Source: a virus. Taken from it: a stretch of 64,000 nucleotides of DNA. This document shows positions 10,885 through 53,904 of this stretch, piece after piece. The notes below the pieces were generated by a model. The model ran no database searches. It saw only the letters and a list, made by a program, of their open reading frames with translations, and was not told the origin of the DNA. The position numbers were made by a program, and so were the translations under genes. Every line of letters starts with the position of its first letter. The first letter of the stretch is position 1. The stretch lies in IMG/VR virus record IMGVR_UViG_3300017987_000063, positions 26,972-90,971 of that record, one strand, 5' to 3'.

Positions 10885-10900
10885 GCGCAATCACTTGCGC
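10885..10900. repeat. 16-bp quasi-palindrome GCGCAATCACTTGCGC, copy 1
   Basis: Exact copy immediately after the stop of the 10902..11069 ORF. Confidence 0.85.
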
Positions 10901-10901
10901 T

Positions 10902-11069
10902 TTACAGTTCGGTCTCCACCAGCCCCTCAAGGCTCTTTAACACCGCCTCAATGGGGAGGTTAAGGCAGGCGAAGTCTTCGCCGCGCCGTAAGTTCACCGG
11001 CATCCGAGGCCCCTCATAGCTGAAGGTGCCGTCCATCTCAAGTTCCATATAGCTTATTGTCCACTCCAT
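10902..11069 (-). CDS. 55 aa hypothetical protein (not in the ORF track)
   Basis: MEWTISYMELEMDG...ETEL*, preceded by a promoter and GGAGGACAGG. Confidence 0.65.
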   Translation of the reverse strand: MEWTISYMELEMDGTFSYEGPRMPVNLRRGEDFACLNLPIEAVLKSLEGLVETEL

Positions 11070-11099
11070 TTTCCTGTCCTCCTTTATCCTTTTACTATT

Positions 11100-11127
11100 A
11101 TTATAGCATATATATTTAAAATGTCAA
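11100..11127 (-). promoter_or_regulatory. sigma70-type promoter, conserved-spacer family
   Basis: TTGACA-TTTTAAATATATATGC (16 bp)-TATAAT. Confidence 0.8.
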
Positions 11128-12060
11128 TACCTCTGGCCGGAAAAAGTGCGCTTTTTCCAATATTTCTCGCGCCTCTTCCATCGAACACTCGGCAGGGTCT
11201 TTACGGGGGTACAGATATGCCGCTTCTTCCACCGGAATGCGCCTGTAAAGGGCTTTTCCTATGCGCCCCGCTGCTTCCTTACCCGGCCCATCGTTATCAA
11301 GGAATAACACCACTGGGCAGCCCCATTCAACCAGTTTTTGCTCCTTCTGCACCGTAAGAGAGGAGCCCATGAGCCCTAAAATATCAAACTCAGGCAGTTT
11401 CCACTGCCACAGCTTTAAAACGTCCATAAGCCCCTCAACCAGCACAATCTTAGGCTTTCCTTCTAGTTTCCATTCCCCATAAAAATGAAGCCGCTTTTTC
11501 AGCCCAAGCAGTCCCTTATAGCGGGGTCGGGTCTTACTTGGTTTCAAGAGCCTGCCCTCCGCGCCCACGAGCTTGCCGCTTTCGTCCCGCACCGGAAATA
11601 CCACTCGTCCATCGGACTCGGCGATTCTGATACCCCATTCTTTAGCCGTATCAAAGTAAACCCCCCGGTTCAGGATATAATTCGGCACCGCCTTCCGATA
11701 ACCGGACAGAATCTCCTCCTCAAGTTCGGGGTCTGTGACTGATGGAGCGGCGACACTGCCCGGCCCCATGCGCTCGTTAAGCTCCACAAACTCCATAAGC
11801 TCCGGCAGTGACTTCTTACCGAACCACTCCAGCTTTCGCACCATCGTTCGCAGGTTCCGACCTTTATGCCCGCATGTAAAGCAGTTAAATGGGCTGGCAC
11901 CCCCTTCCACGGCCTTAATTCCCATCGAGGGATGCCTGTCCTCTCCATCTTCATGCGTCCACCGGGCAAGTGGGCACTCCATCGTGTACTCAGGCTCCGA
12001 TGCCCGTACCCGCTTCGCACCGATTAACTCTAGGAATGTTTCAATATCCGATGCTTTCAT
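11116..12060 (-). CDS. DNA primase (zinc finger plus TOPRIM)
   Basis: CP..H/CFTCG zinc-binding domain, VVFPVRD..G, VEGLMD, FLDND. Confidence 0.9.
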   Translation of the reverse strand: MKASDIETFLELIGAKRVRASEPEYTMECPLARWTHEDGEDRHPSMGIKAVEGGASPFNCFTCGHKGRNLRTMVRKLEWFGKKSLPELMEFVELNERMGPGSVAAPSVTDPELEEEILSGYRKAVPNYILNRGVYFDTAKEWGIRIAESDGRVVFPVRDESGKLVGAEGRLLKPSKTRPRYKGLLGLKKRLHFYGEWKLEGKPKIVLVEGLMDVLKLWQWKLPEFDILGLMGSSLTVQKEQKLVEWGCPVVLFLDNDGPGKEAAGRIGKALYRRIPVEEAAYLYPRKDPAECSMEEAREILEKAHFFRPEVLTF

Positions 12061-12109
12061 GTTTACCTCAATGTTTCACGTGAAACAATTGGAAAAAAGC
12101 CGTTTAAAA

Positions 12110-12445
12110 TCAAGACCTTCCGAGAATAAAACCCGCAATTGCGACAGGCTTTAAACCCACGCGCAGCATATTTTTAATCACCGCGATGGCATCCGTACTT
12201 AGACCCGTAGGATCTTCCCGCCAATCATGATTCCGGATCGCCGTACAGGTGTCTGCGCAGGCCCGCGCACCCCACTGGACGTTATGGTTGAGGAAGCCAT
12301 CTATCCACTCCTCAAGATGCCGGGCGACCCGCTCGGCTGCGACTTTAAGCTTATTTTGTCCCTTCGTGAGACCCACAGTTACATCCTCCTTCCTTCTCGA
12401 CAAATACGTCCGCCATGCCCAGCGACGCCACACCGTCACCCGCAT
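12110..12445 (-). CDS. Hypothetical protein; true start probably the internal GTG (VGLTKG)
   Basis: GGAGG lies before the internal GTG, and the ORF tiles upstream of the primase. Confidence 0.5.
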   Translation of the reverse strand: MRVTVWRRWAWRTYLSRRKEDVTVGLTKGQNKLKVAAERVARHLEEWIDGFLNHNVQWGARACADTCTAIRNHDWREDPTGLSTDAIAVIKNMLRVGLKPVAIAGFILGRS

Positions 12446-12752
12446 CCTCCTCCAGCAGGGTAAGGAAGATAAAGAGATAGTTTATCATGTCCACCACCCT
12501 GCCTTCCACCGGCTCGCTGCGTACCTCTCTATCGTTGAGCCATGTTAAAAGGGCATCGAAGTGTTTCAGGAAGTAAACCGCCCACACGTCAATCGGGTCA
12601 ATATTCCGGCCTTCCAGCCGCTTTGCGCCCTCCTTAAAGTTGTTATTCGCGTCCTTACCCTGCGTATAATCATGGCCTTTGGTCTCCAGCAGGGGAACGC
12701 ACTTCTGCATGAAAGTCTCCTTGATTTTTTCAAGCCGTGTCTTCGCGTCCAT
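12351..12752 (-). CDS. MazG-like / nucleotide-modification-associated (Nmad1/DUF1599-like) protein
   Basis: KGHDY...NF...KH...E..EGRVVDMINY pattern. Confidence 0.65.
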   Translation of the reverse strand: MDAKTRLEKIKETFMQKCVPLLETKGHDYTQGKDANNNFKEGAKRLEGRNIDPIDVWAVYFLKHFDALLTWLNDREVRSEPVEGRVVDMINYLFIFLTLLEEDAGDGVASLGMADVFVEKEGGCNCGSHEGTK

Positions 12753-12972
12753 GTCTACTCCTTTCCATTAAATTTTCCCGCATAGCCCCAATATGCGCCT
12801 TTTGCCCGCAATAGGGGCACCGAATATTCCACCTGTCCGCCCTATGTTCAAACTCAGTCCCGCACGTGCAGGCTATCTTGAGCATATTAACCTGCGGAGT
12901 CCAGCGGGCATCCAGTATCTTCATTTGACCCATAATCGGTAACCTCAAATTTGGTATTGGGGCAATAGGCAT
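12730..12972 (-). CDS. Small zinc-ribbon protein
   Basis: CTCG and CPYCG. Confidence 0.55.
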   Translation of the reverse strand: MPIAPIPNLRLPIMGQMKILDARWTPQVNMLKIACTCGTEFEHRADRWNIRCPYCGQKAHIGAMRENLMERSRHGREDTA

Positions 12973-13061
12973 GTAAAGCCACCGCCACGTTATCCTTGTT
13001 TAGCCAGAACTCCTCGTCTGGCCAATCCCATTTTATTTTTATCACTATTTTAGGCATGTTC

Positions 13062-13325
13062 TCACCTCCTTATGTTTTTCAAATAAGCCCTGCACCGCAA
13101 AAAAGGGCATCCATTCACGTCAAACTCTCCGGTAAACTCCAGCGCGGTCTCTATTGGCTTGGGACACTGGCCATTTTTATTGAAAATGCAATCCAGCATC
13201 GGGCAACGGGCAGTGGGCCGCCTACTCGTCTCGATTAAAATATCGCTGAAGCACTGTTCGCAATAAGCCGCCCCCTCTACCAGCTTATCCCCGCAGTTGT
13301 TACAGTTACCTTCTATTTCTCGCAT
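13062..13325 (-). CDS. Cys-rich hypothetical protein
   Basis: CNNC and CEQC, with a GGAGG RBS. Confidence 0.55.
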   Translation of the reverse strand: MREIEGNCNNCGDKLVEGAAYCEQCFSDILIETSRRPTARCPMLDCIFNKNGQCPKPIETALEFTGEFDVNGCPFLRCRAYLKNIRR

Positions 13326-13602
13326 CGTGTGCCTCCTGTATTCCTATGACATTCTTAACCCAATTTTTAAATCCATCCAGCCCTTTCACGAATATATCTT
13401 CCTGCTCAAATATAACCCCCTCAATATACTCCAGCTTTACGTCAAAATATCCGCGAGGATTCGGAGGATGTTTTACCCTCCAGTAAATCAAGCGGTCGCG
13501 TTCGTCCCAAAATTCCTCGCAGTCCAGATTCTCCAGCATGTAATCAATGGCTTCCCGTATCTCCGGCTCAATAATCAAGGGGCTCTTCCTCGCCGATTTC
13601 AA
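13306..13602 (-). CDS. Hypothetical protein
   Basis: Tiles downstream of dnaB. Confidence 0.5.
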   Translation of the reverse strand: MKSARKSPLIIEPEIREAIDYMLENLDCEEFWDERDRLIYWRVKHPPNPRGYFDVKLEYIEGVIFEQEDIFVKGLDGFKNWVKNVIGIQEAHDARNRR

Positions 13603-16138
13603 TATCGTCCGGCACCCCTTTTACAAGGCTGTCCCCCTCCCTGCCGACCAGCCCTGTCTCGGTAAAGTCATTATCCATAAAATTCCAGTTTAACAGGAAC
13701 TCCACAAGCTCGTCCTCCCTGTTTTTAAGCAGCCGAACCAGCATAGTCTTATCCGTCAAGTGGTCTTGATTGCGGAACAGGGCGAGGATAACATCCGCGT
13801 TCTGTGGCAGCCTGTCGCTCAACCCGACGTTCTCCATCCCCGCCCGCAGGCTTTTAAGGTTGACCTGCTTATTGAACTGGGCAGTAATCGCCACCGGAAC
13901 ATGCTGCCTGTGCGCCATCAGGGTAATATCATCCGCGATATTCGTAACCCGCTCCCACATTGAAGTGGCCTTTTTCCAATCCATAAACAGGTAAACACCA
14001 TCCACGAACACAATATCCGGCTTCGTAGCATTCACCACCCGCTCCACGTCCGGCACCGTGCTTACATCCTCTGCACCGATCATGTGTAGTCCGCCCTTAC
14101 CGGCCAGTAAATCCAGCGCATCCCATAATTTTTTCTCGTCAAAGGCTCCGAGCGTTCCCTTCCTTAGCCTGTGGTGTGGGACACCCGCTAAAATGGCATA
14201 AAACCGGCGAATCATGGCTATCTTGCTCATTTCCATCGTCACAATCAGCACTTTTTTACCCATCTGCCATGCCGCCCACGCCAGAAACAGCAGGAAAAAG
14301 GTGTTGTGGGCGACCAGACCATTGGCGACAAAATTATGAGTTTCCAACACCGTAAAATCGAACACTCTTCTTTCACCCACATTCTGTACCTTTTCCACCC
14401 GATCCCATATTATGTCAGGACTGCTCAACCATTCAAATTCGTGGAGTAGCCCCTTATTAGCTCTTATCAAGCCTTGAAACATTCTCCGGCTAACCCTTCC
14501 CGAATTGTGCTTATTCAAAAACTCGCGAGCCCCCCACCGCCGGGGGTTTGTTAGCCCCAAGCACTTTGCGGCCTTTGTAAATAGCCCCTCTCTGTCCGCT
14601 GGCCGAACCCCCTTATGTTTGCGGTTTACTTTAGCTATTGTAATGATTCTTTCCCTTATCTCTTTGCTTACTGGAACAGCATCAATATTTGGATTGCAAC
14701 TGGGATTTAGTTTCGCCAACGCCGTACTTTTCGGGCCGGGAATGTCGGTAAATACAGTTTTAAATGCCTCCCGCGACGTACTGTCAACGATAAACTCCCA
14801 TGACTTGAATTTCCGGCCATTACAGCGGCTTATTTTCACTCGTTTCCTGCCGCTGATCCCGAAACGCATTAACAGCTTTTGAATATCGTCAATCATTCCC
14901 TCCGATCCCAGTCCAATGCCTATGCAGCCGCGCTTATCGATATAACCATCTCCAGCCCATAACACCTCAATAAAGCGGATCAAAGTTTTATATGGAAGCC
15001 GGAACACCCCTACCGGCACTCTTTTTTCGGTCGCCTTCTCGTGCCCCAGTCCATATTTTTTCAATAATTTCGCCCTGATATTCCCTTTAATACCATAGTC
15101 ATATTTGCCATGCTTCCGCTTATGTATCTCACATCCGATTGCGGATGCCGCCTTTTTCACAACGCTTAAAAAAGCGGCACATCCGCTTGTAATGGTGACA
15201 CTGCTCCCTGTATAACCGCCTTCGGATAATAGGGCCGCTAATAATTCAACCTCGCCAATAGGCTGATTCACCGGCATCTCTGGCTCCGGCACCATCTTGG
15301 CTGCCGCTATATAATCTTCCTGCTGCAACTCCGATGCCTTGGCCCAGCCTCGCTGTGTCAAAAAGGGATGCTCCGGCGTTACTGTAATGCGCCGACCAGA
15401 ACGTGTTTCAACCTCGACACACGCCTTAATTCCGGTATCCAGATGGGCGAATGGTTTAACAGATTTAAACCGCCCTCCTGCTTTTTCAAAAGTTAGCAGC
15501 TTACGTTGCTCGTGAACAGCGTCCTTCGCGCTCGGCCACTCCCCCGTTAAAGGGTCATAGATAGGTGTATCTTCGGCAACGCATTTCCCCGTACCCGGTC
15601 GGGCAACTATCAGGATGGTTTCCCCCTCATGCCAGCCGTAAGTAGCCTCGTTTAAAGTCCCCCACGGAGTAATGATGCCGTCCGGCCCGCCGATTTTCTT
15701 GATAAGCTCGTACCTGTCCCGCTGGAGTTTTACCGTAGATTTTGCCATAACGTCCAGCACGATCTCCGAAGTCGCCCCGATCCTCGCCGCCGCCGTCCCG
15801 GTATCCGTCAGCCCGCGCCGTGCCGCCGCGAAGTCCCCCCTGCGGATTGCTGCCTCAACGCTTCCAATACCCTCCAGCATAACGCTTCGGGTCTCGCGCT
15901 CCAGCATTTTATCAACGTAGTACTCCAGAGGCTCAAGAGCTTCCTCAACCTCAAACGAGTAATCCGTCTTTAGCGCGGTCTCCGTGGGCATGGTGCCGTA
16001 TTTCTTCCGGTGTTCAAGGATGTGTTCAAGAGTTCTTCGATGGTCTTTGAAGAAGTCCGGCGATACCCCGCGCTCACTCAGGAGTTCAAGCCGGGGATCG
16101 GCCAGCAGTCTCGTTATTATCTGCCGTTCAAGCCCCAT
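13568..16138 (-). CDS. dnaB: Replicative DnaB-like helicase containing an intein
   Basis: Walker A ARPGTGK|T, TMEM, FVDG, AQFN, ADVILAL and KNRE. Confidence 0.92.
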   Translation of the reverse strand: MGLERQIITRLLADPRLELLSERGVSPDFFKDHRRTLEHILEHRKKYGTMPTETALKTDYSFEVEEALEPLEYYVDKMLERETRSVMLEGIGSVEAAIRRGDFAAARRGLTDTGTAAARIGATSEIVLDVMAKSTVKLQRDRYELIKKIGGPDGIITPWGTLNEATYGWHEGETILIVARPGTGKCVAEDTPIYDPLTGEWPSAKDAVHEQRKLLTFEKAGGRFKSVKPFAHLDTGIKACVEVETRSGRRITVTPEHPFLTQRGWAKASELQQEDYIAAAKMVPEPEMPVNQPIGEVELLAALLSEGGYTGSSVTITSGCAAFLSVVKKAASAIGCEIHKRKHGKYDYGIKGNIRAKLLKKYGLGHEKATEKRVPVGVFRLPYKTLIRFIEVLWAGDGYIDKRGCIGIGLGSEGMIDDIQKLLMRFGISGRKRVKISRCNGRKFKSWEFIVDSTSREAFKTVFTDIPGPKSTALAKLNPSCNPNIDAVPVSKEIRERIITIAKVNRKHKGVRPADREGLFTKAAKCLGLTNPRRWGAREFLNKHNSGRVSRRMFQGLIRANKGLLHEFEWLSSPDIIWDRVEKVQNVGERRVFDFTVLETHNFVANGLVAHNTFFLLFLAWAAWQMGKKVLIVTMEMSKIAMIRRFYAILAGVPHHRLRKGTLGAFDEKKLWDALDLLAGKGGLHMIGAEDVSTVPDVERVVNATKPDIVFVDGVYLFMDWKKATSMWERVTNIADDITLMAHRQHVPVAITAQFNKQVNLKSLRAGMENVGLSDRLPQNADVILALFRNQDHLTDKTMLVRLLKNREDELVEFLLNWNFMDNDFTETGLVGREGDSLVKGVPDDIEIGEEEPLDY
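14303..15583 (-). mobile_element. Intein (427 aa) with LAGLIDADG endonuclease in the DnaB P-loop
   Basis: GK|CVAEDT...TPEHPFLT...LAALLSEG...LWAGDG...GLVAHN|T. Confidence 0.92.
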
Positions 16139-16727
16139 TCTCCGCTCCTATCGTAGCCGTTTTGCGCCACTGAACGCCTTTAAGCTCCAGCATTACCGCG
16201 CTTTCCATTAAAAGCGCCATGAAAGACTGGCTGTAACCCGCTTTTAAAAGGCCGGAAGGCGCGACATTCGTGGTTATCAAGGTAATCTGTAGGTTCTGCG
16301 CCCGCGCCCTTATAATTTCCTCAACTGTGGCCTCTGTAAAGCCGGACGCGGCCTTGTATTCCTTGCCGAGGTCGTCTATTACCAGAACGTCCACATCTAA
16401 AGCCCTGTCGTACCACGTGCCGCCCTCATCAAACTCCCGCTTGGCGATAATCATATCCCGAAGCTCCCCCGCCCTGACAAATAAAGCCGTGTAGCCCCTG
16501 CGCCGGTACTCTTTGGCGATGGCTATAGCCGCCGAGGTCTTTCCGGTTCCATTATCCCCCCACAGCACAATTCCTAATCCATCCCCATAATTATCGCGCT
16601 CAAGATACTCGATCAAGGTCTTCTTGTGTGTGGCTGTATCGGGAATTTGGGAAATGGAAACACCGTAGAACCTGCGGCCTACATGCATCCGCTCATAATC
16701 AGCTTGCTGGAGCTTCCGCCTTTTCAT
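16128..16727 (-). CDS. DnaC/IstB-like AAA+ helicase loader
   Basis: GDNGTGKT, LVIDDLGKE and ITTN. Confidence 0.88.
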   Translation of the reverse strand: MKRRKLQQADYERMHVGRRFYGVSISQIPDTATHKKTLIEYLERDNYGDGLGIVLWGDNGTGKTSAAIAIAKEYRRRGYTALFVRAGELRDMIIAKREFDEGGTWYDRALDVDVLVIDDLGKEYKAASGFTEATVEEIIRARAQNLQITLITTNVAPSGLLKAGYSQSFMALLMESAVMLELKGVQWRKTATIGAENGA

Positions 16728-17718
16728 CCTGTCCTGCTCCTCGTTCCCATCCAAGTATCTTCATAAGGTCTTCCACTGTCTCTCCAGCCGTGGCGGGGTC
16801 ATATTCCCGCGCCGCTCGTGGGTCACGCTTTTCCGGTATATCCCCCTTCTCCCTGTAGTATTTTATAGTCTCCCGGAAGCCAAGTATAATCCCAGGAGTA
16901 GGGTATAAGGCGCTCACGCCGATGGCTTTATACAGTTTATGCCAGCACTCAAAGGTAAAAGTTATCAATAAAACCGCCTCAACCGGCCCCATAATGTCGT
17001 AAAACTTATTCAACTGCCCTGCCTCCTTGCCGGTAAGACCGCCGCTAACATCCGCAGTTAACTCTCTCTGCTTGGCATACAAGGCCCGAATATCCGCCTT
17101 TGTGTAGTCATGAATCTCTTTTATTACTGGTTCTCTAGGAGACTTAACCCTCTTTGCCTTTTTACCCTGTCTTTTAACTCTTGCCGCCGTTGCCCTATTT
17201 TTACCCCGCTGGAGAGCTTGCGCAAGTGATTGCGCCTTCCCATCGGCGTGCGCCCGTAAGGGCGTCTCGCTATGTTCTTCATCTTTGTTTGTTTTTATTA
17301 AAGATTTATCTTTAATATCTTGTATTATTATGTCACGCACCTGCGATGGAACGTATTCCTTATCCTGCGATGGAATACGTTCCATTATCTCTGATGGAAT
17401 AAAGGCGGGTAATTTATGGTCTATAAGCCCCGTTTCCTGTGTTAATCCCAGCCCTCTTCTGGTGGTTGAAATTATACCCATTTCCCTGAGTTTGCGGTAT
17501 GCTCTATCAATAGTAGGCACAGATAACCCTAACCTATCTGCCAGAGTTTTATGGCCAACAATGCACTTGGATTTTTTGCCATAGCAATAGGTCGTAAGAG
17601 CTACATAGACTTGGCAGGTAGTAGGGTCAAGCGAAAAAATAACGTCTGGATGGACTTTTGCAAATCGCTTTAGTGTTCGCTCGTTATCTTTTTTTGCATC
17701 CTTTTTTTGCTTTTTCAT
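16699..17718 (-). CDS. Phage replication initiator with an N-terminal winged HTH
   Basis: GHKTLADRLGLSVPTIDRAYRKLREMGII. Lies directly upstream of the loader and helicase and contains internal iteron-like repeats. Confidence 0.75.
   Translation of the reverse strand: MKKQKKDAKKDNERTLKRFAKVHPDVIFSLDPTTCQVYVALTTYCYGKKSKCIVGHKTLADRLGLSVPTIDRAYRKLREMGIISTTRRGLGLTQETGLIDHKLPAFIPSEIMERIPSQDKEYVPSQVRDIIIQDIKDKSLIKTNKDEEHSETPLRAHADGKAQSLAQALQRGKNRATAARVKRQGKKAKRVKSPREPVIKEIHDYTKADIRALYAKQRELTADVSGGLTGKEAGQLNKFYDIMGPVEAVLLITFTFECWHKLYKAIGVSALYPTPGIILGFRETIKYYREKGDIPEKRDPRAAREYDPATAGETVEDLMKILGWERGAGQDEKAEAPAS
17220..17235. repeat. 16-bp quasi-palindrome, copy 2 (inverted orientation)
   Basis: GCGCAAGTGATTGCGC on the plus strand, inside the initiator gene. 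Confidence 0.85.
17284..17400. other. Putative replication origin: iteron-like repeats next to an AT-rich tract
   Basis: CCTGCGATGGAA at 17340 and 17364 and CTCTGATGGAA at 17389, adjacent to AT-rich 17284-17330. Confidence 0.5.
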
Positions 17719-18155
17719 TTATTTTTCCCCCGCTTCCTCGCTGGAGGGGTCTCCTCTTCCTGCTCCTCTACGGCTTTTTGCAATACATAAGGAGGCGCCC
17801 CTTCACGAATTAAAAGGCGCAAATAATCCGCGTCGGTCTCTGCCTGCAAAATCAGACCTTCTTTTATAAGCGTCCGCTCAAATTCTGCAATAACATTGCC
17901 TGTAATGTAGCGGTAGCCATTTACCTCTTTAAAAAGTTTAGCCCATGCCCTTCCAAGTTCCAGCCGTATTCCTTCATCTTCACAACCTCGTGCAGCATCG
18001 TAAAGAGGGTCGAGCGCGAAGGCATCCGCAAATTCCCTAAAAACCGGATCGTCATTTCCTTTTTTGTGTAGTCTGAAGATTATCGAAAGCTCGTTCTTCC
18101 GCCATTCTAGCTCAACTTTAATTGGGATAATATCGGTAAGCGTATCTGTAGGCAT
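17715..18155 (-). CDS. Hypothetical protein
   Basis: AAGGAGG RBS; its stop overlaps the initiator start. Confidence 0.7.
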   Translation of the reverse strand: MPTDTLTDIIPIKVELEWRKNELSIIFRLHKKGNDDPVFREFADAFALDPLYDAARGCEDEGIRLELGRAWAKLFKEVNGYRYITGNVIAEFERTLIKEGLILQAETDADYLRLLIREGAPPYVLQKAVEEQEEETPPARKRGKNK

Positions 18156-18304: not shown

Positions 18305-18312
18305 GTAAAAAA

Positions 18313-19230: not shown

Positions 19231-19258
19231 ATTATAGCATATATTTTTATAATGTCAA
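19231..19258 (-). promoter_or_regulatory. sigma70-type promoter, conserved-spacer family
   Basis: TTGACA-TTATAAAAATATATGC (16 bp)-TATAAT. Confidence 0.8.
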
Positions 19259-21133: not shown

Positions 21134-21176
21134 AAAAAAGTCAGGCGAGGGTGGGAGGACAGGCCACACCCCCGCC
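21134..21176 (-). terminator. Intrinsic terminator whose loop is antisense to the GGAGGACAGG start motif
   Basis: GGCGGGGGUG/CACCCUCGCC stem, loop UGGCCUGUCCUCC, then a U6 tract. Confidence 0.7.
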
Positions 21177-22161: not shown

Positions 22162-22424
22162 TTTTTCGGCCCTTCCAGCTTGATAAGCCCCGCCTCGGTA
22201 GCCCTTCGGTAAAGCTCACCGGTATCGCACCATGCCTCCTGCGCCTTTACCTCGTCGGGGAAGACTGTCCTCAGCCGCTCCTTGTTAATCCTGTCCGCTG
22301 CGCCGATGGCGTTAAACAGGTGGGTCGAAAAGCTCCCCGCCTTGTTTTTCTGGTAATCCAGATAAAGCATCTCGGCTTCGGTAAACTTGATTCCTTTGAT
22401 TTCCGGCATTTTATCCTCCCGCAA
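22158..22424 (-). CDS. Hypothetical protein; likely start MPEIK
   Basis: GGAGG RBS; GSFSTHLFNAIGAADRINKERL. Confidence 0.65.
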   Translation of the reverse strand: MREDKMPEIKGIKFTEAEMLYLDYQKNKAGSFSTHLFNAIGAADRINKERLRTVFPDEVKAQEAWCDTGELYRRATEAGLIKLEGPKK

Positions 22425-22434
22425 TCACTTGCGC
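22419..22434. repeat. 16-bp quasi-palindrome, copy 3
   Basis: CCGCAATCACTTGCGC overlapping a stop codon and abutting the next RBS. Confidence 0.85.
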
Positions 22435-23793: not shown

Positions 23794-23821
23794 ATTATAG
23801 CATATATATTTATAATGTCAA
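23794..23821 (-). promoter_or_regulatory. sigma70-type promoter, conserved-spacer family
   Basis: TTGACA-TTATAAATATATATGC (16 bp)-TATAAT. Confidence 0.8.
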
Positions 23822-25555: not shown

Positions 25556-25583
25556 ATTATAGCATATATATTTAAAATGTCAA
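25556..25583 (-). promoter_or_regulatory. sigma70-type promoter, conserved-spacer family
   Basis: TTGACA-TTTTAAATATATATGC (16 bp)-TATAAT. Confidence 0.8.
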
Positions 25584-27012: not shown

Positions 27013-27084
27013 TAGCGGGGGCAGGAGTTGAACCCACGATAGCCGGAATATGAATCCGGTGCCTTACCACTTGGCTACCCCGCT
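27013..27084 (-). tRNA. tRNA with anticodon CAU (Met or Ile2); CCA not encoded
   Basis: Full cloverleaf: AGCGGGG/CCCCGCU, D-arm GCC-AAGUGGUAA-GGC, CCGGA-UUCAUAU-UCCGG, and T-loop UUCAACU. Confidence 0.9.
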
Positions 27085-27159: not shown

Positions 27160-27696
27160 CTAGAATTTAAGTATATCAAATCCGATGGCGAAATGCAAGC
27201 CCCGTTCGATAGGCTCATCCGGTGTCCAGCCGCAGCCCATCGTAAGGGTTAAAATCTCCGGTATAAGCTCCGTGCCTGTACCGATGATAATAACAGTCGC
27301 CCCCGCGCTCAACTCCACAAAGTCAGGCGCAATCACTTGCGCCCATTTTATCCATGTCCTGTTCGCGGGATTCTGGATTTGGGGAAAAAGGCGATACCGC
27401 GCTCCAATTGTAGGGGTAATAAGCGAATCTTCCCCAATAACCACTACGAAACCTCCTGTAATCTGTGGAAAGTACGTTGCCAGTTTCGCGCCGGGGTCAT
27501 CGGTTATCAGGTTGCCTTCGTCGTCGTAACGGAGCGGCGGTGCGCCTGCTTCCTCCGCGATAACCTCCGCCTCACTGTCATCCTGTCCAAACGCGCCATA
27601 AGGCAGTAAGAAAAGAATTGAGGTCATTAGGGTCAGGAGGATGCTTAATCTTTTCCCATGCCCGAAGGTACTGGACAAGTCGGTAAACTTTCGCAA
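27160..27696 (-). CDS. Exported protein, possibly a small outer-membrane beta-barrel
   Basis: Signal-peptide-like N-terminus, amphipathic strands and a C-terminal Phe. Confidence 0.55.
   Translation of the reverse strand: MRKFTDLSSTFGHGKRLSILLTLMTSILFLLPYGAFGQDDSEAEVIAEEAGAPPLRYDDEGNLITDDPGAKLATYFPQITGGFVVVIGEDSLITPTIGARYRLFPQIQNPANRTWIKWAQVIAPDFVELSAGATVIIIGTGTELIPEILTLTMGCGWTPDEPIERGLHFAIGFDILKF
27327..27342. repeat. 16-bp quasi-palindrome, copy 4
   Basis: Exact copy within a CDS, encoding AQVIA. Confidence 0.85.
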
Positions 27697-33286: not shown

Positions 33287-33498
33287 TGAAACCTCCTATT
33301 ATCCGCGTCTGCCTTTTCCTCCACCGCGTCCACCGCCTCTTCCTCCGCCGGGGCCTCCACGGGAGCATCCGCCGGTATTACGACCACCCCTTCTGCCGCC
33401 AACCATACCAACGCCCCTGCCTCTGCCATCTCTTGGTCTTGCCTGTCCTCTCGGATTCCTTGTTGCAGTAGCCATTTTTTAACTCCTTCCGCAATCAC
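33283..33498 (-). CDS. Small acidic hypothetical protein
   Basis: Tiles in the tail operon. Confidence 0.5.
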   Translation of the reverse strand: MIAEGVKKWLLQQGIREDRQDQEMAEAGALVWLAAEGVVVIPADAPVEAPAEEEAVDAVEEKADADNRRFQ

Positions 33499-33504
33499 TT
33501 GCGT
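33489..33504. repeat. 16-bp quasi-palindrome, copy 5
   Basis: CCGCAATCACTTGCGT directly after the stop at 33505-33507. Confidence 0.8.
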
Positions 33505-38569: not shown

Positions 38570-38585
38570 GCGCAATCACTTGCGC
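38570..38585. repeat. 16-bp quasi-palindrome, copy 6
   Basis: Exact copy inside a small unlisted ORF starting at 38630, encoding AQVIA. Confidence 0.85.
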
Positions 38586-42019: not shown

Positions 42020-44937
42020 GACCCTTGATTAGATATAGCCCGCTCGACCATGTTCTGAACTTTCGTCTGAACTGCGCTCCATATCTGGTTACCATCGAGA
42101 TACAGTTTACTGGTAAGCTGCATGGTATTTTGAAGGTTAATATTGGACGTAACCTGTGTGGGGCCTCCTCCGCCCCTTTCCGATGCCACTGGCCCCGCCT
42201 GTCCCGGTGAAGCCGTTGCCGCCGCTGCGGGAGCCCTTCCGCCCCTGCCCGTAAACATACTTACAAACATGCCGCCCGCCAAATCCATTTGTTTTAAAGC
42301 CACTCCACCGGCAGTGGCAAGGGGAGCCATTTGATTGGCCAGTGCCGCCTTGCCTATATCGGCAAGATTTTTAATCGCCTCCTGTGCGTTTTTAGGTGTT
42401 TTTTCTATCTTTTTAGCGGGCTTCATCAGGGCTTCAAGGAAAGTATTCAGCCGCTTAAAAGGGTCTCTCTCATTCTTTTTTTCGACCGCTGTTAAGGCAT
42501 CCTGCCACCGCTGTGTTTCAACCACCATTTGGGTCAACGGCTTAATGGTTTGCTGCATCGCTGCGGCCTGTTGCTTGGCAGCATCTGCCTCCATATACAT
42601 GCCATCCGCCGCCTCTCGCGCAATCGGGCCTGTGCGTTTTAACTCTTTATTGGACTTTTTTTCAGACTTAAAAACATCATTCCAAATTCCTTTAATATCT
42701 CCACCCTTTTCGAGCAGCCAACTAAGCACCGGAATATCCGAAAAAGTGTCTGAGATAAGCGTTTTTAAATTACCCAGCAGGGTCGCCACCTGATTATATA
42801 AATACTGAAATGCGGCTATAATAGGCCCCACGACGCTCATAACAGGCTCTTTTATAGACTCCCATACTGACAATGCCTTTGCTTTAATAGCCTCTAAAAA
42901 TGGCGTAACTCGTTCTTTAAGGGTTGAAAAGGCACTGCTTCCCCACCCCGCTATTTTCGAGAACATATTTTTATAAACGCCGCCAATATAAACCGCAGTA
43001 GATTTAAACCATCCCCCGATTGAAACCGCCAGCGATTTTAGCCTGCCTCCAAGCGAAGCAAATGCTCCTTTTATCCTATCGGCAACGGCAGAGGCTATCC
43101 CACCCATCCACTTAAAAGCCGCCGCCACGCCTTTGATTGCGCCCATAAAAAGACCGCCCAAAAGGTAGTTTGCGACTCGTGCTATAACAATTCCAACTTT
43201 AATAATTGTCGAGGCTATTTTTGCCACAAATCCTATGACTTTGGCGATAGCAATAGCAGCCTTGAAAAAAGGTGTAAGTATGTACTGAAAAATAGCCGCC
43301 GCAATCTTTGCGCTGGTTCCAATTATACCTGTACCCATACCTCCTGCCGCTCCGACAAGGCTAGATAGGGCACCATATATTGTCCTAACAAGCTCTATCA
43401 CCGGAGAAAGAGCCTCTTTTATAGCGTTAAATTGGGCTATTATAAAGTCTCCAAGACCAGCCCTCCAGATAGCCCGCAATGCAAAAAACCCCGCCACAAG
43501 CAACCCGATTACCAACACCACCGGCCATAAGGCTGCCCATAATGCTGTTAAAACGGCAGTAAAAAACGCCCCTGCGCCACCTGCTACACCAAACGCAACG
43601 GCCATTGCCCCTATAGAAATTGCGGCTCCTATAGCTAAAGCACCCAAAATTAAAAGACCTCCCACCACGATAAGAAGCACGGAAGCGAATAACATCATAT
43701 ATGCAATAATCTTTTTCGTTGTTGGAGACAGATTTACGAGCCACTCTCCTACTTTTGCGCCGATATCTAGCAGTCTTTTAAACAAGGGCAGCAGTTTATC
43801 CCCAAGCTGTATGGCAAACGTCTTTATAGTGCCGGAGAAGGTAGCCCATCGGGAGCCTAACGTGCCCATCTGTTTTTCAAATCCGGATTGAACTGCCGTG
43901 CCTTCCTCCCATAACTGATTGCCCATATTAAGAACATCCGTCAACTTAGTGCCTGTCGCGGTGGTCTTTTTCATCTCGTCCCTGAAACCACTGGCCACCG
44001 CCTGCGCGAAAGTACCGGAAATTCCAAACGCCTGCATTGTCTGCGTCCACTGTTCGTTCGTCTGCTGGGCAGCCGACCCCATAAATTTCAGGAAAAGCTC
44101 CTGCGCCATTTGCGCTTTTTCCGCTCCCGCAGGCAGGTTCTGCATCGTGGTTATCTGCTGCTCGGTAACACCGGTCATGGCGGCCATAGCCTTTTTATTC
44201 TTTAACAAGGCCATAAACACCAGATTCATGTTGGTGCCCGCCCGCTCCGAGCTTATACCCGCATTCCGCATAACCGCCGCGAAAGCTGCTGTCTGCTGAA
44301 CATTAAACCCAAACTGCCGCGCACCCACTTGCGCCCGCAGGGTAATATCTGAAATCTCGGTTGCCGTGCCAACTGAAACCATATCAAGGCGGGATAATAC
44401 AGATGCCAGCCTGTTCGCGTCTTTCATATTAACTCCGAACACGTTAGACAGGGTCGCAAAAGACTGGGCCGCTCCCTCAACAGAGAAATCCGTCTGCTGC
44501 GCCATCATAACGGCAGCTTTGCCAATCTTTATCATGGCTTCTTCGCCTTCAATACCGAATTTGGCCGCTATAATAGACGCATCCGCAAGCTCTTGCGCTG
44601 AAATAGGAAGAGGGGCAGCCGCCTTAAATATGGCCTCCTTCAAATCCCCAAGCTGGTCGGTTGTCTTACCGGTAAGAATGGCCATTTGAGCCATAGAGCC
44701 TTCAAATGTTGCAGCCTGCTTAACACCATAGGCCAAAACGCCCCCTATAGCCACGCCTGCGCCCACAAAAGCCTTACCTGTAGTCATCATGGCCTGCTGC
44801 GCCATCATCGCCTTAGACTGCATCGTGGTGGCTCTTCCGGCCACCTCTTTTATGGCACCGCTTATACCCCGCAGTCCGGCGGAGGCCGCATCTTCCAAGA
44901 TAAACCGGAGACCAAATACTGCTGAACCTGCTGGCAT
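42016..44937 (-). CDS. Tail tape measure protein (TP901-like core)
   Basis: Ala/Gly-rich helical protein with GISSERAGT, a TM region and Trp-spaced repeats. Confidence 0.9.
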   Translation of the reverse strand: MPAGSAVFGLRFILEDAASAGLRGISGAIKEVAGRATTMQSKAMMAQQAMMTTGKAFVGAGVAIGGVLAYGVKQAATFEGSMAQMAILTGKTTDQLGDLKEAIFKAAAPLPISAQELADASIIAAKFGIEGEEAMIKIGKAAVMMAQQTDFSVEGAAQSFATLSNVFGVNMKDANRLASVLSRLDMVSVGTATEISDITLRAQVGARQFGFNVQQTAAFAAVMRNAGISSERAGTNMNLVFMALLKNKKAMAAMTGVTEQQITTMQNLPAGAEKAQMAQELFLKFMGSAAQQTNEQWTQTMQAFGISGTFAQAVASGFRDEMKKTTATGTKLTDVLNMGNQLWEEGTAVQSGFEKQMGTLGSRWATFSGTIKTFAIQLGDKLLPLFKRLLDIGAKVGEWLVNLSPTTKKIIAYMMLFASVLLIVVGGLLILGALAIGAAISIGAMAVAFGVAGGAGAFFTAVLTALWAALWPVVLVIGLLVAGFFALRAIWRAGLGDFIIAQFNAIKEALSPVIELVRTIYGALSSLVGAAGGMGTGIIGTSAKIAAAIFQYILTPFFKAAIAIAKVIGFVAKIASTIIKVGIVIARVANYLLGGLFMGAIKGVAAAFKWMGGIASAVADRIKGAFASLGGRLKSLAVSIGGWFKSTAVYIGGVYKNMFSKIAGWGSSAFSTLKERVTPFLEAIKAKALSVWESIKEPVMSVVGPIIAAFQYLYNQVATLLGNLKTLISDTFSDIPVLSWLLEKGGDIKGIWNDVFKSEKKSNKELKRTGPIAREAADGMYMEADAAKQQAAAMQQTIKPLTQMVVETQRWQDALTAVEKKNERDPFKRLNTFLEALMKPAKKIEKTPKNAQEAIKNLADIGKAALANQMAPLATAGGVALKQMDLAGGMFVSMFTGRGGRAPAAAATASPGQAGPVASERGGGGPTQVTSNINLQNTMQLTSKLYLDGNQIWSAVQTKVQNMVERAISNQGS

Positions 44938-46286: not shown

Positions 46287-46317
46287 TTTTGCCTCCTTAT
46301 AGATTTTTTACAGGCTC

Positions 46318-46860: not shown

Positions 46861-46872
46861 TGTTACCTCCTC

Positions 46873-48858: not shown

Positions 48859-49156
48859 TCTTTACCTCCTTCTTTGTGCCCTTCTTGCTCGTGCTTTTTT
48901 TCTCATCCTCCATGATATCCGCTAGAGGAATCTCCGCAGGAGCGGGCGAAGGAGCACTCGCTTTACCTTTTACTTGAATTATCGCGATCCTTCCATCCCG
49001 TACCAGCTTAACAGGCTCCCCGCGAGTAGCCACGTCATCCGGATAAGTCTCTTCGGATTCTCCTTTTGCCTTTAGATATAAAGACTTAAACCGGCCATCC
49101 GCGAGCAGCAGGTTCAGCGATACAGGATATTTGGTCGTATTTTTAAACCGAATCAT
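48848..49156 (-). CDS. Hypothetical virion-associated protein
   Basis: Tiles upstream of the sheath gene. Confidence 0.6.
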   Translation of the reverse strand: MIRFKNTTKYPVSLNLLLADGRFKSLYLKAKGESEETYPDDVATRGEPVKLVRDGRIAIIQVKGKASAPSPAPAEIPLADIMEDEKKSTSKKGTKKEVKNGE

Positions 49157-49166
49157 CAGTTTCCTC

Positions 49167-50432: not shown

Positions 50433-50905
50433 TATCCTCCAAGCTCCCACCAAATTAACACGCCAATTTTGCTATCCGTCCCGATGCGTTGTAACTCCGG
50501 CTCGGTTTCCCTCACAGTCGGGGCAACCACTGGCCTCGGCGGTATGGTAGACGTGCCTTTTTCCTGATAGGCCATAAGGGTCGCCACATTGAGCTTGCGG
50601 TGTCCCCTGTCGGGATGAAGTCCAGCCGTGTAATCACATGAGCCGTGCCTGCGAACCTCAACGAGCGATGCCAGCAGGCCGGTCTCCACCAACTTCGTTC
50701 CGGAACCTTTACGGGCTACCGTGCCGGCGGCCAATGCGGGGCCTTCTGCCGCGCCAGATAAAATTGCATCCTCTAAATTTCGCGCCATAACATCGGCCAT
50801 ATCCGATAACACGCCATCGCCGACCTTTTTCAAAGCCCGCGCCATGTTACCGGGGTTGGTTACCCGCATAGCCTTAGCCCAGTCTCCTATCTTTTTAACA
50901 ATCAT
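50432..50905 (-). CDS. Tail completion / virion morphogenesis protein
   Basis: LAAGTVARKGS...LVETG...YQEKGTSTIPPRP. Confidence 0.75.
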   Translation of the reverse strand: MIVKKIGDWAKAMRVTNPGNMARALKKVGDGVLSDMADVMARNLEDAILSGAAEGPALAAGTVARKGSGTKLVETGLLASLVEVRRHGSCDYTAGLHPDRGHRKLNVATLMAYQEKGTSTIPPRPVVAPTVRETEPELQRIGTDSKIGVLIWWELGG

Positions 50906-51105
50906 TTCTCGCTCGTGCTTCCCTTATCGTCATACTTTTTCATAAAACTTGGCAGTTCTACTTCAACACCTGATTCCTCGGCTACACTCTGGAGATATTC
51001 GAAGAATTTACGGTGTGCTTCCCTGTTTGTCTCAAGAGCCTGCTTTAGCAGGTCTCCATTATCTTTAGGGCTTCTTTTTTTCTTCCGTTTTTCCAGCATT
51101 TTCAT
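50902..51105 (-). CDS. Hypothetical protein
   Basis: Overlaps neighbouring genes in tiling fashion. Confidence 0.5.
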   Translation of the reverse strand: MKMLEKRKKKRSPKDNGDLLKQALETNREAHRKFFEYLQSVAEESGVEVELPSFMKKYDDKGSTSEK

Positions 51106-51355
51106 TGCGTAGATAGCCCATTATGGTCTGGTTCATAAGTTGCACGACTCCCACCAGTTGACTTTGGGTTACCTGTAAGCCGGTTAAAGCCACCGAGTTA
51201 TTCTGTAACGCCTCAATCAAGGCCATCCGCTCTTGATCCCTGCTCTTTAGCAGGTCTTTAAGCACCGACCTTATAAATGCCGTACCAATTAAAATACTCA
51301 AGCCGAGCAGCCCCAGTGCGCCAAATTGCAGCCATTCTGTGGGAGATATGCCCAT
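51065..51355 (-). CDS. Single-TM coiled-coil protein (holin-like)
   Basis: WLQFGALGLLGLSILIG followed by a coiled coil. Confidence 0.55.
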   Translation of the reverse strand: MGISPTEWLQFGALGLLGLSILIGTAFIRSVLKDLLKSRDQERMALIEALQNNSVALTGLQVTQSQLVGVVQLMNQTIMGYLRNENAGKTEEKKKP

Positions 51356-51369
51356 AGTTTAGCCTCCGG

Positions 51370-51612
51370 TTACACCTTCTCCGTTCTCAATTGCCCATTA
51401 TTTTCGATATACACCATCCATTTCGAGCCATCCGGCGAAGTCATAATAACATTCTGCGGATACTCGTCCAGCCGCTCCACCTTACGAATAGGGTGCGCGG
51501 GATTATTCGGGCATTGTGTTGGTTTCAGTTTACTTTCCACCTGTCCGCCTGCACAGACAGTGCAGAACACATACCAGACCTTTACTTTATCTTTTTTATC
51601 GGGTTTGGCCAT
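51370..51612 (-). CDS. Small zinc-binding hypothetical protein
   Basis: CTVC...CPNNPAH and SPDGSKW. Confidence 0.6.
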   Translation of the reverse strand: MAKPDKKDKVKVWYVFCTVCAGGQVESKLKPTQCPNNPAHPIRKVERLDEYPQNVIMTSPDGSKWMVYIENNGQLRTEKV

Positions 51613-51622
51613 TTTTTACCTC

Positions 51623-51838
51623 TTATGGGTCAAGCGGAGGAAGCGCGGCTATTATGCCATCCAGAATTGTCTTGTTCCCCGCATCCAAATCGGTCTCAAA
51701 ATAAACGTGGAGAAGCTCCAAAGCCTCTTCCCATGTTGCGCCCTGTTGCGATTTATTGGTCATCGCACTGCCGTCAATATCGCTCCACAGGTCATCGAGA
51801 TAGGGCTGCACCATCTTGGTGTAGTCATAAACTGCCAT
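51623..51838 (-). CDS. Hypothetical protein
   Basis: Tiles in the operon. Confidence 0.55.
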   Translation of the reverse strand: MAVYDYTKMVQPYLDDLWSDIDGSAMTNKSQQGATWEEALELLHVYFETDLDAGNKTILDGIIAALPPLDP

Positions 51839-51839
51839 T

Positions 51840-53537
51840 TTATCCTACCCTCATTATTTCTGCGCGGGCTCGCCGCATACTTACGCTCTGGCCCGGTACA
51901 GATGTGCCAAACTCCAATATAATGACATCAGTGCCCGCTCCAAGTCCATCGGGTACTATAAATTCTTTGAACACCGTGACTCGTCGGTAATCCGCGCCAT
52001 TATATTGGGAATTGAAGTAAAATTCCCCGTAAATATCTCCCGTGCGGCTATTACGTATTCTGGCCAAGCAAGCGCGAGGCGGACTTGTTGCATCCCCACG
52101 CCCTTCCGTGGTAACGCTACACATATAACGACCGGGATAAGCATGGTCAACACTTGTGGTAAGCATCGTTGCACCATAAGCTGCTAAGGTTGTGGCAACA
52201 ACTGGCTCCTGCTCCTGATAATCCTGCTGGTAAGGCACCGTGCGCTGAGTTAAATACAAGGTCTGCCCGCTGATATTGGTTACCTTCTGCTCGTTATAAG
52301 TCGTATTATGGAAGAAGATTTCTACTGTGCCCAATCCAGCCACAAAATAGACATCAACGTTCGAATATGCCTGTGGATATTCTTCTCCCAGCACCGTGTT
52401 ATACAGGTTCAACCAGTTATTTTGGGCAGATGTAAACTGCTCGTCCAATATCAACGAGTTTTTGGCAATCAACCGGCAACTTTCTATGCTGAGTGCGCCA
52501 CCGGGATACCGAAGAGCGCTTGCCGATGTAGTACCCTGTAAATTCCTTATCTGAAGGTTGTTTATATGCGGGTCTGGCCAAGCAGTATCGTCTATCCAAA
52601 CGCCGCATGTTGGAACATCGGCAACATTCGGAGCGCCCAGCAGCATATAAACATCGTTTGCGTAACGCAAAAGCTCCTGTAATGTGCTGGGATCTATTCC
52701 AGATTTTCCTGCCGCTGGGATGCCAAGCAGGGTATTTGCCGTTCCGGAACCCGTGACGATAACCTCGTTATTGCTATCATTGCAGCCAATCTGGACATAG
52801 CCTGTTCCACCAATATTTGTTCCCACTTCAACGGCCTTAATATTCCCTGTGGCCGCCGCATTTATCCTCGCCGCAACCAATGCCGCCGTAGTATCTCCTG
52901 CTTGGAAAGTTACGGTAAAAGGCGTTCCGGCAGGGCCTTGCTGGATTATCAAAGTCTCTCCGCCCACAATGGCAAAAGGCTCTGGAATACCGGAGTAAAC
53001 GCTCACGCTGTCCCGTACCCACCAGCCTAGTTTTACAGTACCCGCCCCAATTCCGTAAAGTCCCAGTCCATCTAAACCTCCGATCCCGCTTTGAATGAGA
53101 AAATCCGTATTTCCCGCTCCTGTATACCCCAATCCGGTCGAACGAATACCATCGCCCTTGAGCCACACCCAGTCGGGAATAACAAGTTTATCAACGGCAA
53201 AATCCTCTTGCGCGAGCCATAGAACATAGCGTTTAGTGGGAGAAGGGGCTTCAGGATCGCCAATAGCAATCAAGTTATTCAGATAAGTGATGGCAGCCTG
53301 TATAGTGTTAAACTGGTCTTTAAATCCGCGATACCCGCTGCCGACCCATAAAATCCTGTTAAAATATGGAGTATCGCCCCAAATAACGCCGCCCACACCA
53401 TCTGGCTGGAGGCGTTTATCGGGGTTTGACTCTACCGTGGTCAAGCCTTCAACCGTACCCCCGCCGCCACCCCCTGTCCCCAAGAGAACGCCATCGAGGA
53501 TAACTTTAAAGGCATCATAATCTATGGCATTGCTCAT
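51840..53537 (-). CDS. Virion structural protein (possible head/neck fibre with a beta-helix-like region)
   Basis: FNTIQAAI...IPDWVWLKGDG beta-helix start and an inserted domain resembling the capsid insertion. Confidence 0.6.
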   Translation of the reverse strand: MSNAIDYDAFKVILDGVLLGTGGGGGGTVEGLTTVESNPDKRLQPDGVGGVIWGDTPYFNRILWVGSGYRGFKDQFNTIQAAITYLNNLIAIGDPEAPSPTKRYVLWLAQEDFAVDKLVIPDWVWLKGDGIRSTGLGYTGAGNTDFLIQSGIGGLDGLGLYGIGAGTVKLGWWVRDSVSVYSGIPEPFAIVGGETLIIQQGPAGTPFTVTFQAGDTTAALVAARINAAATGNIKAVEVGTNIGGTGYVQIGCNDSNNEVIVTGSGTANTLLGIPAAGKSGIDPSTLQELLRYANDVYMLLGAPNVADVPTCGVWIDDTAWPDPHINNLQIRNLQGTTSASALRYPGGALSIESCRLIAKNSLILDEQFTSAQNNWLNLYNTVLGEEYPQAYSNVDVYFVAGLGTVEIFFHNTTYNEQKVTNISGQTLYLTQRTVPYQQDYQEQEPVVATTLAAYGATMLTTSVDHAYPGRYMCSVTTEGRGDATSPPRACLARIRNSRTGDIYGEFYFNSQYNGADYRRVTVFKEFIVPDGLGAGTDVIILEFGTSVPGQSVSMRRARAEIMRVG

Positions 53538-53875
53538 CCTTTCAAGTCCTCCTCAACCACTTCCGCCCGCATTGCGGACGTTGCGCCAGTGGTTATGATT
53601 TCCAGATGCTCGGTAACGTCCAGCGGTATGGTTCCCAATACCAGAATGGACAGGTTTGTGTTGCCGGTGAGCCGTAAAACGTCAAGCCGCATATTATCTT
53701 CGCTCACTATTTGAATAGCCACGTTCTTGGCTTCCGCCCCGACGTACATGCCTATTCGGACGATTTTCGTTCCCGTGCGGTCATCTGTTGGGTTATCGAA
53801 AAAACGGCCTTTCCCCGCTGAACCGTCAAACTGCTGTCCTGCCGCTATTGTCTGAATATGCTGTTCAAATGCCAT
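53534..53875 (-). CDS. Hypothetical virion protein
   Basis: GAGAGG RBS. Confidence 0.6.
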   Translation of the reverse strand: MAFEQHIQTIAAGQQFDGSAGKGRFFDNPTDDRTGTKIVRIGMYVGAEAKNVAIQIVSEDNMRLDVLRLTGNTNLSILVLGTIPLDVTEHLEIITTGATSAMRAEVVEEDLKG

Positions 53876-53888
53876 AATTACCTCTCAC

Positions 53889-53904
53889 GCGCAATCACTT
53901 GCGC
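53889..53904. repeat. 16-bp quasi-palindrome, copy 7
   Basis: Exact copy filling the gap between a stop codon and the next RBS. Confidence 0.85.

Follow-up and report, generated by a model that had tools for sequence, protein, structure and literature searches.

Why does a short inverted repeat recur about every 6 kb along the genome of a large phage known from a metagenomic contig? The question is raised by a stretch of 64,000 nucleotides (nt), referred to here as the window, which comprises positions 26972-90971 of a 90,971-bp viral contig in IMG/VR (record IMGVR_UViG_3300017987_000063, here G000) with an estimated CheckV completeness of about 63%. G000 represents an intein-rich myovirus, in which sheath, tape measure and baseplate genes were found. 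Its genes are all on the minus strand, giving a single direction of transcription over more than 90 kb, and its GC skew is about -0.2 throughout. We consider it somewhat probable that the repeats are recognition sites on double-stranded DNA for a sequence-specific symmetric (dimeric) protein. The leading, though tentative, candidate for the binder is P0241, a protein predicted to have a ParB/Noc/KorB-like fold and encoded by the same genome.

The 14-mer core of the repeat, CGCAATCACTTGCG, has 11 exact copies in the contig, seven of which are in the window, and none in shuffled sequences. A preliminary description of this DNA had reported a 16-bp quasi-palindrome at those seven window positions. 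All seven copies do share the exact core, and the full 16-mer GCGCAATCACTTGCGC is found at 10885, 17220 (inverted), 27327, 38570 and 53889, but the copies at 22419 and 33489 depart from it at the outermost bases only. Defining the site by a pair of perfect arms, CGCAA-N4-TTGCG, we obtained 14 sites in the contig against approximately 0.08 expected, and relaxing this pattern to GCAA-N4-TTGC recovered no further sites in G000. Within the window there are 11 matches to the 16-mer with at most three mismatches, compared to 0.57 in shuffles, which contained no exact match. Past the 16 bp, the flanks of the sites are unrelated to one another.

The sites are also spaced evenly. The gaps between the 14 sites have a coefficient of variation (CV) of 0.38 versus about 0.93 for random placement (P=0.0002), corresponding to a spacing of about 6 kb. 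The gap sizes given earlier for the first six window copies (6.3, 5.2, 4.9, 6.2 and 5.1 kb) are correct, and the regularity which they indicate is significant. Orientation is a different matter. The majority form on the coding strand is CGCAAGTGATTGCG, and the same orientation is shared by six of the seven window copies, as had been counted before, by nine of the 11 exact copies, and by 11 of the 13 perfect-arm sites in the contig that can be oriented. The count is correct, but by calculation a skew of -0.2 is enough to make GTGA, rather than TCAC, the coding-strand form in about 69% of cases; the bias is therefore not significant and, taken alone, is no evidence.

If the repeats serve a function, the family should be recognizable outside this contig. 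No close relative of G000 was found among cultured phages, and a scan of metagenome contigs by sheath protein returned distant homologues only, with the nearest being about 40% identical. We scanned IMG/VR for the core and one variant of the 16-mer; the matches were mainly chance singletons, together with several multi-copy contigs from which two groups emerged. The first group consists of G007, G008, G009 and G010, with a GC content of 56% and estimated genomes of about 170 kb. These contigs share with G000 syntenic genes for RecA, ParB-like, MerR-like, helicase, DnaB, DnaC-like loader, primase, methylase and sheath proteins at 25-40% identity and are deep relatives of G000. The second group consists of G002, G003 and L228, with a GC content of 62% and a genome of about 29 kb; no protein common to this lineage and G000 or G007 was detected by blastp, phmmer, Pfam or PHROGs. 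When the ParB-like protein was used as the query, G020, G021 and about ten further contigs joined the first group.

Sites are abundant in these relatives, with 20 in 54 kb of G007 and 19 in 42 kb of G008, where about one would be expected, and the gaps in G020 and G021 are approximately 6 kb as well. The consensus of the family is RYGCAA-TCGA-TTGCRY. Its arms (RYGCAA-N4-TTGCRY) are common to all lineages, and the preferred centre differs by lineage: TCGA in G020 and G021, where the site is a perfect 14-bp palindrome (CGCAATCGATTGCG), CCGA/TCGG, TCAA and CTGA in G007 and G008, GTGA and CCGA in G002, and GTGA/TCAC in G000. Relative to transcription, the sites in G007 are oriented 4:4, and the combination of a potential GNRA loop (on the transcript) with an orientation bias is confined to G000. 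Conservation in related phages had been proposed as a check on the repeats; the presence of the family in relatives that share only 25-40% protein identity favours function. As a side observation, G017 (IMGVR_UViG_3300035660_000001), a relative of 160 kb which does not carry the main motif, has 14 copies of CCGGA-N3-TCCGG located at 73-74 kb and 96-99 kb. We considered TCCGGA-N3-TCCGGA as a substitute dispersed palindrome in this contig and rejected it, as it is enriched but clustered and is probably a coding repeat.

In order to determine at which level the sites are conserved, we compared homologous copies. In an alignment of the homologous region from G007 to G010, the longest invariant run is a 17-nt block that holds the site, in a region where the proteins encoded by G007 and G008 have an identity of only about 48%. 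At three homologous sites in G002, G003 and L228, none of the 30 arm positions varies, compared to 61-83% invariant positions in the flanks; at one of these sites the centre has changed at three of four positions and an indel adjoins the site. Despite sequence turnover, three sites keep their approximate neighbourhood, though not the same residue position, between G000 and G007: one in the initiator gene, one just after the primase gene, and one between the MerR-like gene and recA. For the initiator-gene pair, homology at the level of residues is unsupported (E=0.35), and the peptides do not align. At the site between the MerR-like gene and recA, the coding-strand centre is TCGG in G007 and is flipped to CCGA in G008, and the encoded residues change from AIGC to ATDC, with the arms being kept. 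These comparisons indicate that the palindrome arms are under purifying selection regardless of strand, reading frame and exact place. Conservation of this kind is the signature of a DNA site bound by a protein, and it argues against a GNRA hairpin, strand-specific nicking and a by-product of coding. Of the two options raised in the preliminary description, the one of genome-wide sites for a dimeric DNA-binding protein is supported by the true palindromic character of the arms, by the perfect 14-bp palindrome in G020 and G021, and by this conservation of DNA in deep relatives, in either orientation and within genes.

The simplest alternative is that the repeats have no function, arising from a coding bias towards AQxIA-type peptides or as a selfish short repeat. 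In G007 and G008 the majority of sites are in genes and are usually read as [A/T]-Q-x-[I/V/L]-A, the frame which in-gene copies prefer, and bacterial genomes show a modest in-gene background of the pattern, both of which would be expected of a coding by-product. However, the phages carry sites at about 90 times the density found in the bacterial background, eight of the 14 copies in G000 are non-coding, the arms are invariant where the residues change (AIGC versus ATDC), and the site is kept across phages at 25-40% protein identity. We find this alternative hardly credible, and the frame preference in G007 and G008 is best read as the choice of the least harmful frame.

The placement of the sites in G000 is biased as well. 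Eight of the 14 contig sites fall at gene junctions; as non-coding sequence makes up about 20% of the contig at most, the calculated binomial P for this is ~0.002. At three junction sites the central TGA is the stop codon of the upstream open reading frame (ORF), which ends in ...RK, and a further four follow the end of the upstream stop at a distance of 1-5 nt. Start codons are typically at +24 to +28, a space just enough for a Shine-Dalgarno (SD) sequence. It had been stated earlier that four window copies are at stop codons or junctions and the others within coding sequences; the junction placement stands, but we count five of the seven at junctions, with the next start codon 24-28 nt past the motif start, while 17220 is in a gene and 27327 is ambiguous. 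The exact 16-mer at 10885..10900 (plus strand) is intergenic, the stop of the upstream 55-aa ORF being 2 nt before the core. At 22419..22434 (plus), the central TGA of an exact 14-mer core is the stop of the upstream 145-aa ORF, with SD and ATG directly after it, and at 33489..33504 (plus) another exact core is preceded by a 509-aa tail protein ORF which ends 1 nt before it and is followed by the SD and ATG of the next ORF. The exact 16-mer at 38570..38585 (plus) lies in the junction 3' of the baseplate hub gene, with the stop 42 nt upstream, and the one at 53889..53904 (plus) is intergenic, the upstream 144-aa ORF ending 2 nt before the core and an SD being followed by ATG at +28.

The in-gene copies of G000 are found in recA, the O-like replication initiator gene, the tape measure gene and a 1081-aa ORF. 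The inverted exact 16-mer at 17220..17235 (minus strand) encodes the peptide AQSLA of the initiator. At 27327..27342 (plus) an exact 16-mer lies inside an unannotated 178-aa ORF in an AQVIA frame, and its assignment as coding or intergenic is ambiguous. The two variants reported previously in the tape measure gene match their description: the copy at 44319..44334 (plus) is degenerate, with one arm broken by two mismatches, and is possibly due to chance or decayed, and the unoriented copy at 44583..44598 has perfect arms, the centre GCTC/GAGC and the peptide AQELA. We add to these a perfect-arm inverted variant with the centre CTGA at 60174..60189 (minus), encoding PQSVA in the 1081-aa ORF, and a degenerate copy with three mismatches to the 16-mer at 6771..6786 (plus) in a 220-aa ORF, which again is possibly chance or decayed.

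A position between a stop codon and the next start brings up signals of transcription and translation. An intrinsic terminator is ruled out by the lack of a U-tract after the sites. A role as promoter is ruled out also: the sigma-70-like early promoters (TTGACA-16-TGCTATAAT) form a repeat family of their own and are located elsewhere, and start codons at +24 to +28 leave no space for a promoter downstream of the motif. That family is itself worth recording. It consists of about nine near-identical, perfect extended -10 promoters with TTGACA, 16 nt that include AAATATATA, and TGCTATAAT, on the minus strand between window positions 9218 and 26965 (e.g., 11100-11127, 19231-19258, 23794-23821 and 25556-25583), and is limited to the early/replication half of the contig, with none in the structural gene region. 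A translation start motif, GGAGGACAGGAC(A)ATG, is likewise repeated at about 12 gene starts (e.g., window positions 11073, 18864, 21494, 23741, 25388, 26654 and 26892), and one inverted copy is present at 21154 on the other strand.

There is more to be said for a role of the repeat within the transcript, where a hairpin of 5-6 bp with a GUGA loop at gene junctions would be the target of an antiterminator or translational regulator, as boxB is, or a signal for processing or stability. The hairpin is part of the minimum-energy RNA fold in all seven contexts tested, 11 of the 13 orientable sites in G000 would give a GUGA, GCGA or similar loop on the mRNA, the eight junction sites come directly after a stop and 10-14 nt before the next start, and transcription runs in one direction over the entire contig. 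The boxB-like signal with a GNRA loop, the second option of the preliminary description, is nonetheless not supported by the relatives. Their centres, CCGA, TCGG, CTGA, TCAA and TCGA on DNA, would form the non-GNRA loops CCGA, UCGG, CUGA, UCAA and UCGA; their orientation is mixed (4:4 in G007), most of their copies are in coding sequence, and homologous sites flip the centre. In G000 itself GC skew accounts for the orientation bias (about 69% predicted), the stem is not extended by the flanks, no U-tract is present, and a scan with Rfam matched none of the sites. The sole match in that scan was a transfer RNA gene (RF00005, 64.7 bits) at window positions 27013-27084 on the minus strand, 240 nt downstream of the 27327 site. 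A transcript element is thus, in our judgement, distinctly unlikely as an explanation of the family.

The repeats could also be the target of an enzyme that cuts, nicks or recombines DNA, for example sites of strand-specific nicks as in T5, the site of a homing or HNH nuclease, or a recombination sequence at module boundaries. The presence of 11 identical 14-mers amounts to enzyme-like strictness, nearly all sites in G000 face one strand, and inteins as well as LAGLIDADG and HNH genes are plentiful in the genome. Inteins or LAGLIDADG inserts occur in four genes of G000, namely those for a helicase, a family A DNA polymerase, DnaB and the portal protein; the intein/LAGLIDADG genes are at window positions 634-3429, 3300-6206, 13568-16138 and 61062-63815, and a DNA methylase gene (7696-9810) holds a large insert as well. 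Furthermore, recombination between the repeats of Cluster O mycobacteriophages has been described (PMC4351075). However, with the perfect palindrome of G020 and G021 and the mixed orientation in G007, nicking would become double-strand cutting, and the copy in recA is in the variable loop of a shared Cys-rich insert with no sign of an insertion event. We regard an enzyme target as very improbable.

The copy in recA was also considered as a product of a mobile element or insertion. It is located in an 18-aa segment that is missing from E. coli RecA, but this origin is ruled out, as the motif fills a variable loop of an insert shared by homologues. The phage RecA (contig positions 25607-26755, ending at window position -216) has this Cys-rich insert, CxxC...CxC, after the Walker A helix; the insert is common to the closest metagenomic phage RecA homologues (P0122-P0133) and absent in E. 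coli RecA, and it may be a zinc-binding element.

If a protein recognizes the sites on DNA, it might be encoded by the host rather than by the phage, with unrelated phages exploiting or titrating a host transcription factor or nucleoid protein through docking sites or operators. An identical family in the 62%-GC lineage of G002, G003 and L228, in which no protein in common with G000 or G007 was detected, would be accounted for in this way, as would the constant specificity among phages in which the candidate binders have an identity of only 25-35%. The arms CGCAA/TTGCG match those of the E. coli PurR box, and the site resembles ACGCAAACGTTTGCGT; operators of this type are palindromes of 14-16 bp with CG at the centre to which a dimer of the LacI family binds, but no LacI-family protein was seen among the ORFs of G000 that were scanned. 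Against a host factor, when 185,579 species genomes were scanned for the 16-mer, the matches listed (at least 120) were only scattered single hits in unrelated taxa. Five bacterial genomes, which were chosen for a second nearby site and have no relation to the phages, have a background of about one site in every 0.4-1.7 Mb, mostly intragenic and lacking the R..Y flanks, and a motif abundant in the host genome thus finds no support among the matches listed and the five genomes followed up. A host regulon would also not explain 14-20 evenly spaced sites per phage genome. We conclude that a host factor is unlikely.

Among the proteins of the phage, the primary candidate is P0241, a ParB-fold protein of 249 aa encoded on the minus strand at contig positions 12984-13733, about 13 kb upstream of the window. 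It has a Pfam match to ParB_N (E=7.8e-13), a full-length match to phrog_26387, and a GGEHRWKAA box, which is compatible with nucleotide binding but resembles nuclease-type ParB-like motifs too. Its homologues in G007 and G008 are 34% identical over the full length. An AlphaFold model built from an alignment of 70 sequences has a pLDDT of 88.6, and the best matches of this model in the PDB, as found by Foldseek, are Noc, ParB bound to cytidine triphosphate (CTP) and KorB, over 190-230 columns. The matches span the nucleotide-binding domain and the helical DNA-binding region, with low TM-scores (0.35-0.5), because the orientation of the domains differs. The genomic context of the homologues is suggestive as well: in ten of 11 loci from motif-bearing relatives, the ParB-like match begins 36-48 nt after a site, in the order site-SD-ATG. 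By analogy, this layout is typical of an autoregulated ParB or KorB gene. The genomic surroundings of full-length ParB-like homologues also contain 38 sites in 288 kb, compared to three in 754 kb around partial ones, a contrast which is confounded by the fact that many of the full-length loci are from relatives of G007. We consider P0241 a plausible, if tentative, candidate for the protein that binds the sites.

Several observations weigh against this interpretation. There is no site in front of the ParB-like gene of G000 itself. G017, G018 and G019 encode ParB-like homologues that are 30-32% identical, yet have no such site, and the G002 lineage has sites, but the available 77% of its genome shows no ParB domain. 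The nearest sheath relative (G001) has only 3-4 weak variants, and strict sites in G007 and G008 are not evenly spaced. Finally, the strict asymmetric centre of the sites in G000, their 11 of 13 orientation and their position at junctions would also fit a role at the level of the transcript.

Two other proteins had been put forward in the preliminary description on account of their helix-turn-helix motifs, and P0241 appears to be a better candidate than either. The MerR-like protein encoded at window positions 109..588 (minus strand) is conserved in G007 and G008 and is a possible binder, which we keep as a secondary candidate. The O-like initiator (16699-17718, minus) is less likely, as its gene has iterons of its own and an AT-rich dip. 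These features are located at window positions 17260-17387, where a dip to 28-30% GC is accompanied by a 10-nt inverted repeat and two tandem 24-nt repeats, each of which holds a 14-nt palindrome, ATGGAACGTATTCC; together, they look like a lambda-type origin within the initiator gene. The 17220 site is 40-170 nt from the dip and the two iterons. Elsewhere upstream of the window, contig positions 17883-21255 contain a gene pair encoding CobT-like (VWA domain) and CobS/MoxR-like (AAA_5) proteins. A DUF4417-like gene is found near the ParB-like gene in G000; DUF4417 was reported as a frequent fusion partner of phage ParB folds in a survey of ParB-CTPase proteins (PMC12704722).

We infer from these comparisons that a protein binds the sites, that P0241 may be this protein, and that binding would have an effect on the genome as a whole. 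The site family is dispersed along the genomes of an entire group of large myoviruses, G000 having the centre variant TCAC/GTGA and 14 sites about 6 kb apart, mainly in short intergenic gaps. According to this model, P0241 would load at the sites and act over the whole genome, by analogy with KorB on RK2 and with Noc, and the outcome of loading could be global control of transcription or the organizing or marking of phage DNA. A more specific version, in which P0241 is an orphan, nucleotide-dependent clamp of the ParB/KorB/Noc type that loads approximately every 6 kb and either times transcription or marks, protects or organizes the phage DNA, is possible but doubtful. Orphan ParB-CTPase proteins are common in phages, and their DNA targets and roles are largely uncharacterised (PMC12704722). 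If the clamp version were true, these sites would be the first cognate DNA site, and their use the first function, for this widespread group of proteins. Literature searches returned no description of this site family. In the uncultured large phages described here, a candidate protein and a candidate site family occur together, with clear purifying selection on the sites; standard annotation misses genome-wide functions of this kind, and the site family is a useful marker for spotting the phage group in metagenomes.

Of the known systems, the one nearest to the proposed mechanism is found on plasmid RK2, which carries 12 OB sites. These are the operators of KorB, a CTP-dependent sliding clamp of the ParB family which is also a global repressor (PMC11790492). 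As on RK2, a mobile genome tens of kb in size has short palindromes scattered over it and encodes a protein with a predicted ParB fold that combines an N-terminal domain for nucleotide binding with a helical domain for DNA binding (KorB being among the Foldseek matches of the model), and relatives have a site directly upstream of the gene for that protein. The site sequence differs, however (TTTAGCGGCTAAA versus RYGCAATCGATTGCRY), and the replicon is a large tailed phage with one-directional transcription instead of a plasmid. No KorA or ParA partner was found among about 50 ORFs scanned in this incomplete genome, and the sites are largely off promoters, in junctions or within genes. Noc binding sites offer a similar analogy, being palindromic loading sites for a ParB-fold protein across a replicon.

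Among phages, the linear plasmid-prophage N15 has dispersed centromere sites, IR1-4, which are bound by SopB (PMC7205306). There too, palindromic sites for a protein of the ParB family (SopB) are scattered over a phage genome rather than clustered, although N15 has four sites, a SopA/ParA partner and the life of a plasmid-prophage, whereas the phage described here has many sites and no ParA among the ORFs scanned. With regard to RNA signals, the resemblance to boxB and N of lambda and P22 is limited to a 5-bp stem with a GNRA-like loop that would be possible on the transcript of G000. The boxB elements of those phages number two per genome and are in leader RNAs, whereas the present phages have 14-20 sites, many of which are coding; the sites face both ways, and their centres in relatives are not of the GNRA type. 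The stoperators of Cluster A mycobacteriophages are asymmetric, orientation-dependent sites of 13-14 bp for the immunity repressor of temperate phages. They resemble the present sites in having many copies in short intergenic regions across the genome, which in G000 mostly point one way relative to transcription. They differ from the present family in symmetry, as its consensus is palindromic, and in orientation, which is 11 of 13 in G000 but 4:4 in G007, the sites in G020 and G021 being symmetric; the regions scanned yielded neither a repressor nor an integrase module.

The closest match in distribution is the 17-bp palindrome TGTTCGG-N3-CCGAACA of Cluster O mycobacteriophages, for which a dimeric regulator has been proposed and whose function is unexplained (PMC4351075). 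That repeat is present in tens of copies, in which the arms are invariant and the centre varies, located in short intergenic gaps, at the 5' ends of genes and within genes, mostly off promoters, and it is kept among relatives with occasional gain and loss. The present family likewise consists of many dispersed copies with invariant inverted arms and a variable centre, of which individual copies are gained and lost among relatives. The two are unrelated in sequence and in phage group, those of Cluster O being siphoviruses of Mycobacterium. Unlike the Cluster O repeat, which belongs to one cluster of close relatives, the family described here spans lineages at 25-40% protein identity together with an unrelated small phage and is evenly spaced in G000, and this distribution, whatever the binder, points to a genome-wide function.

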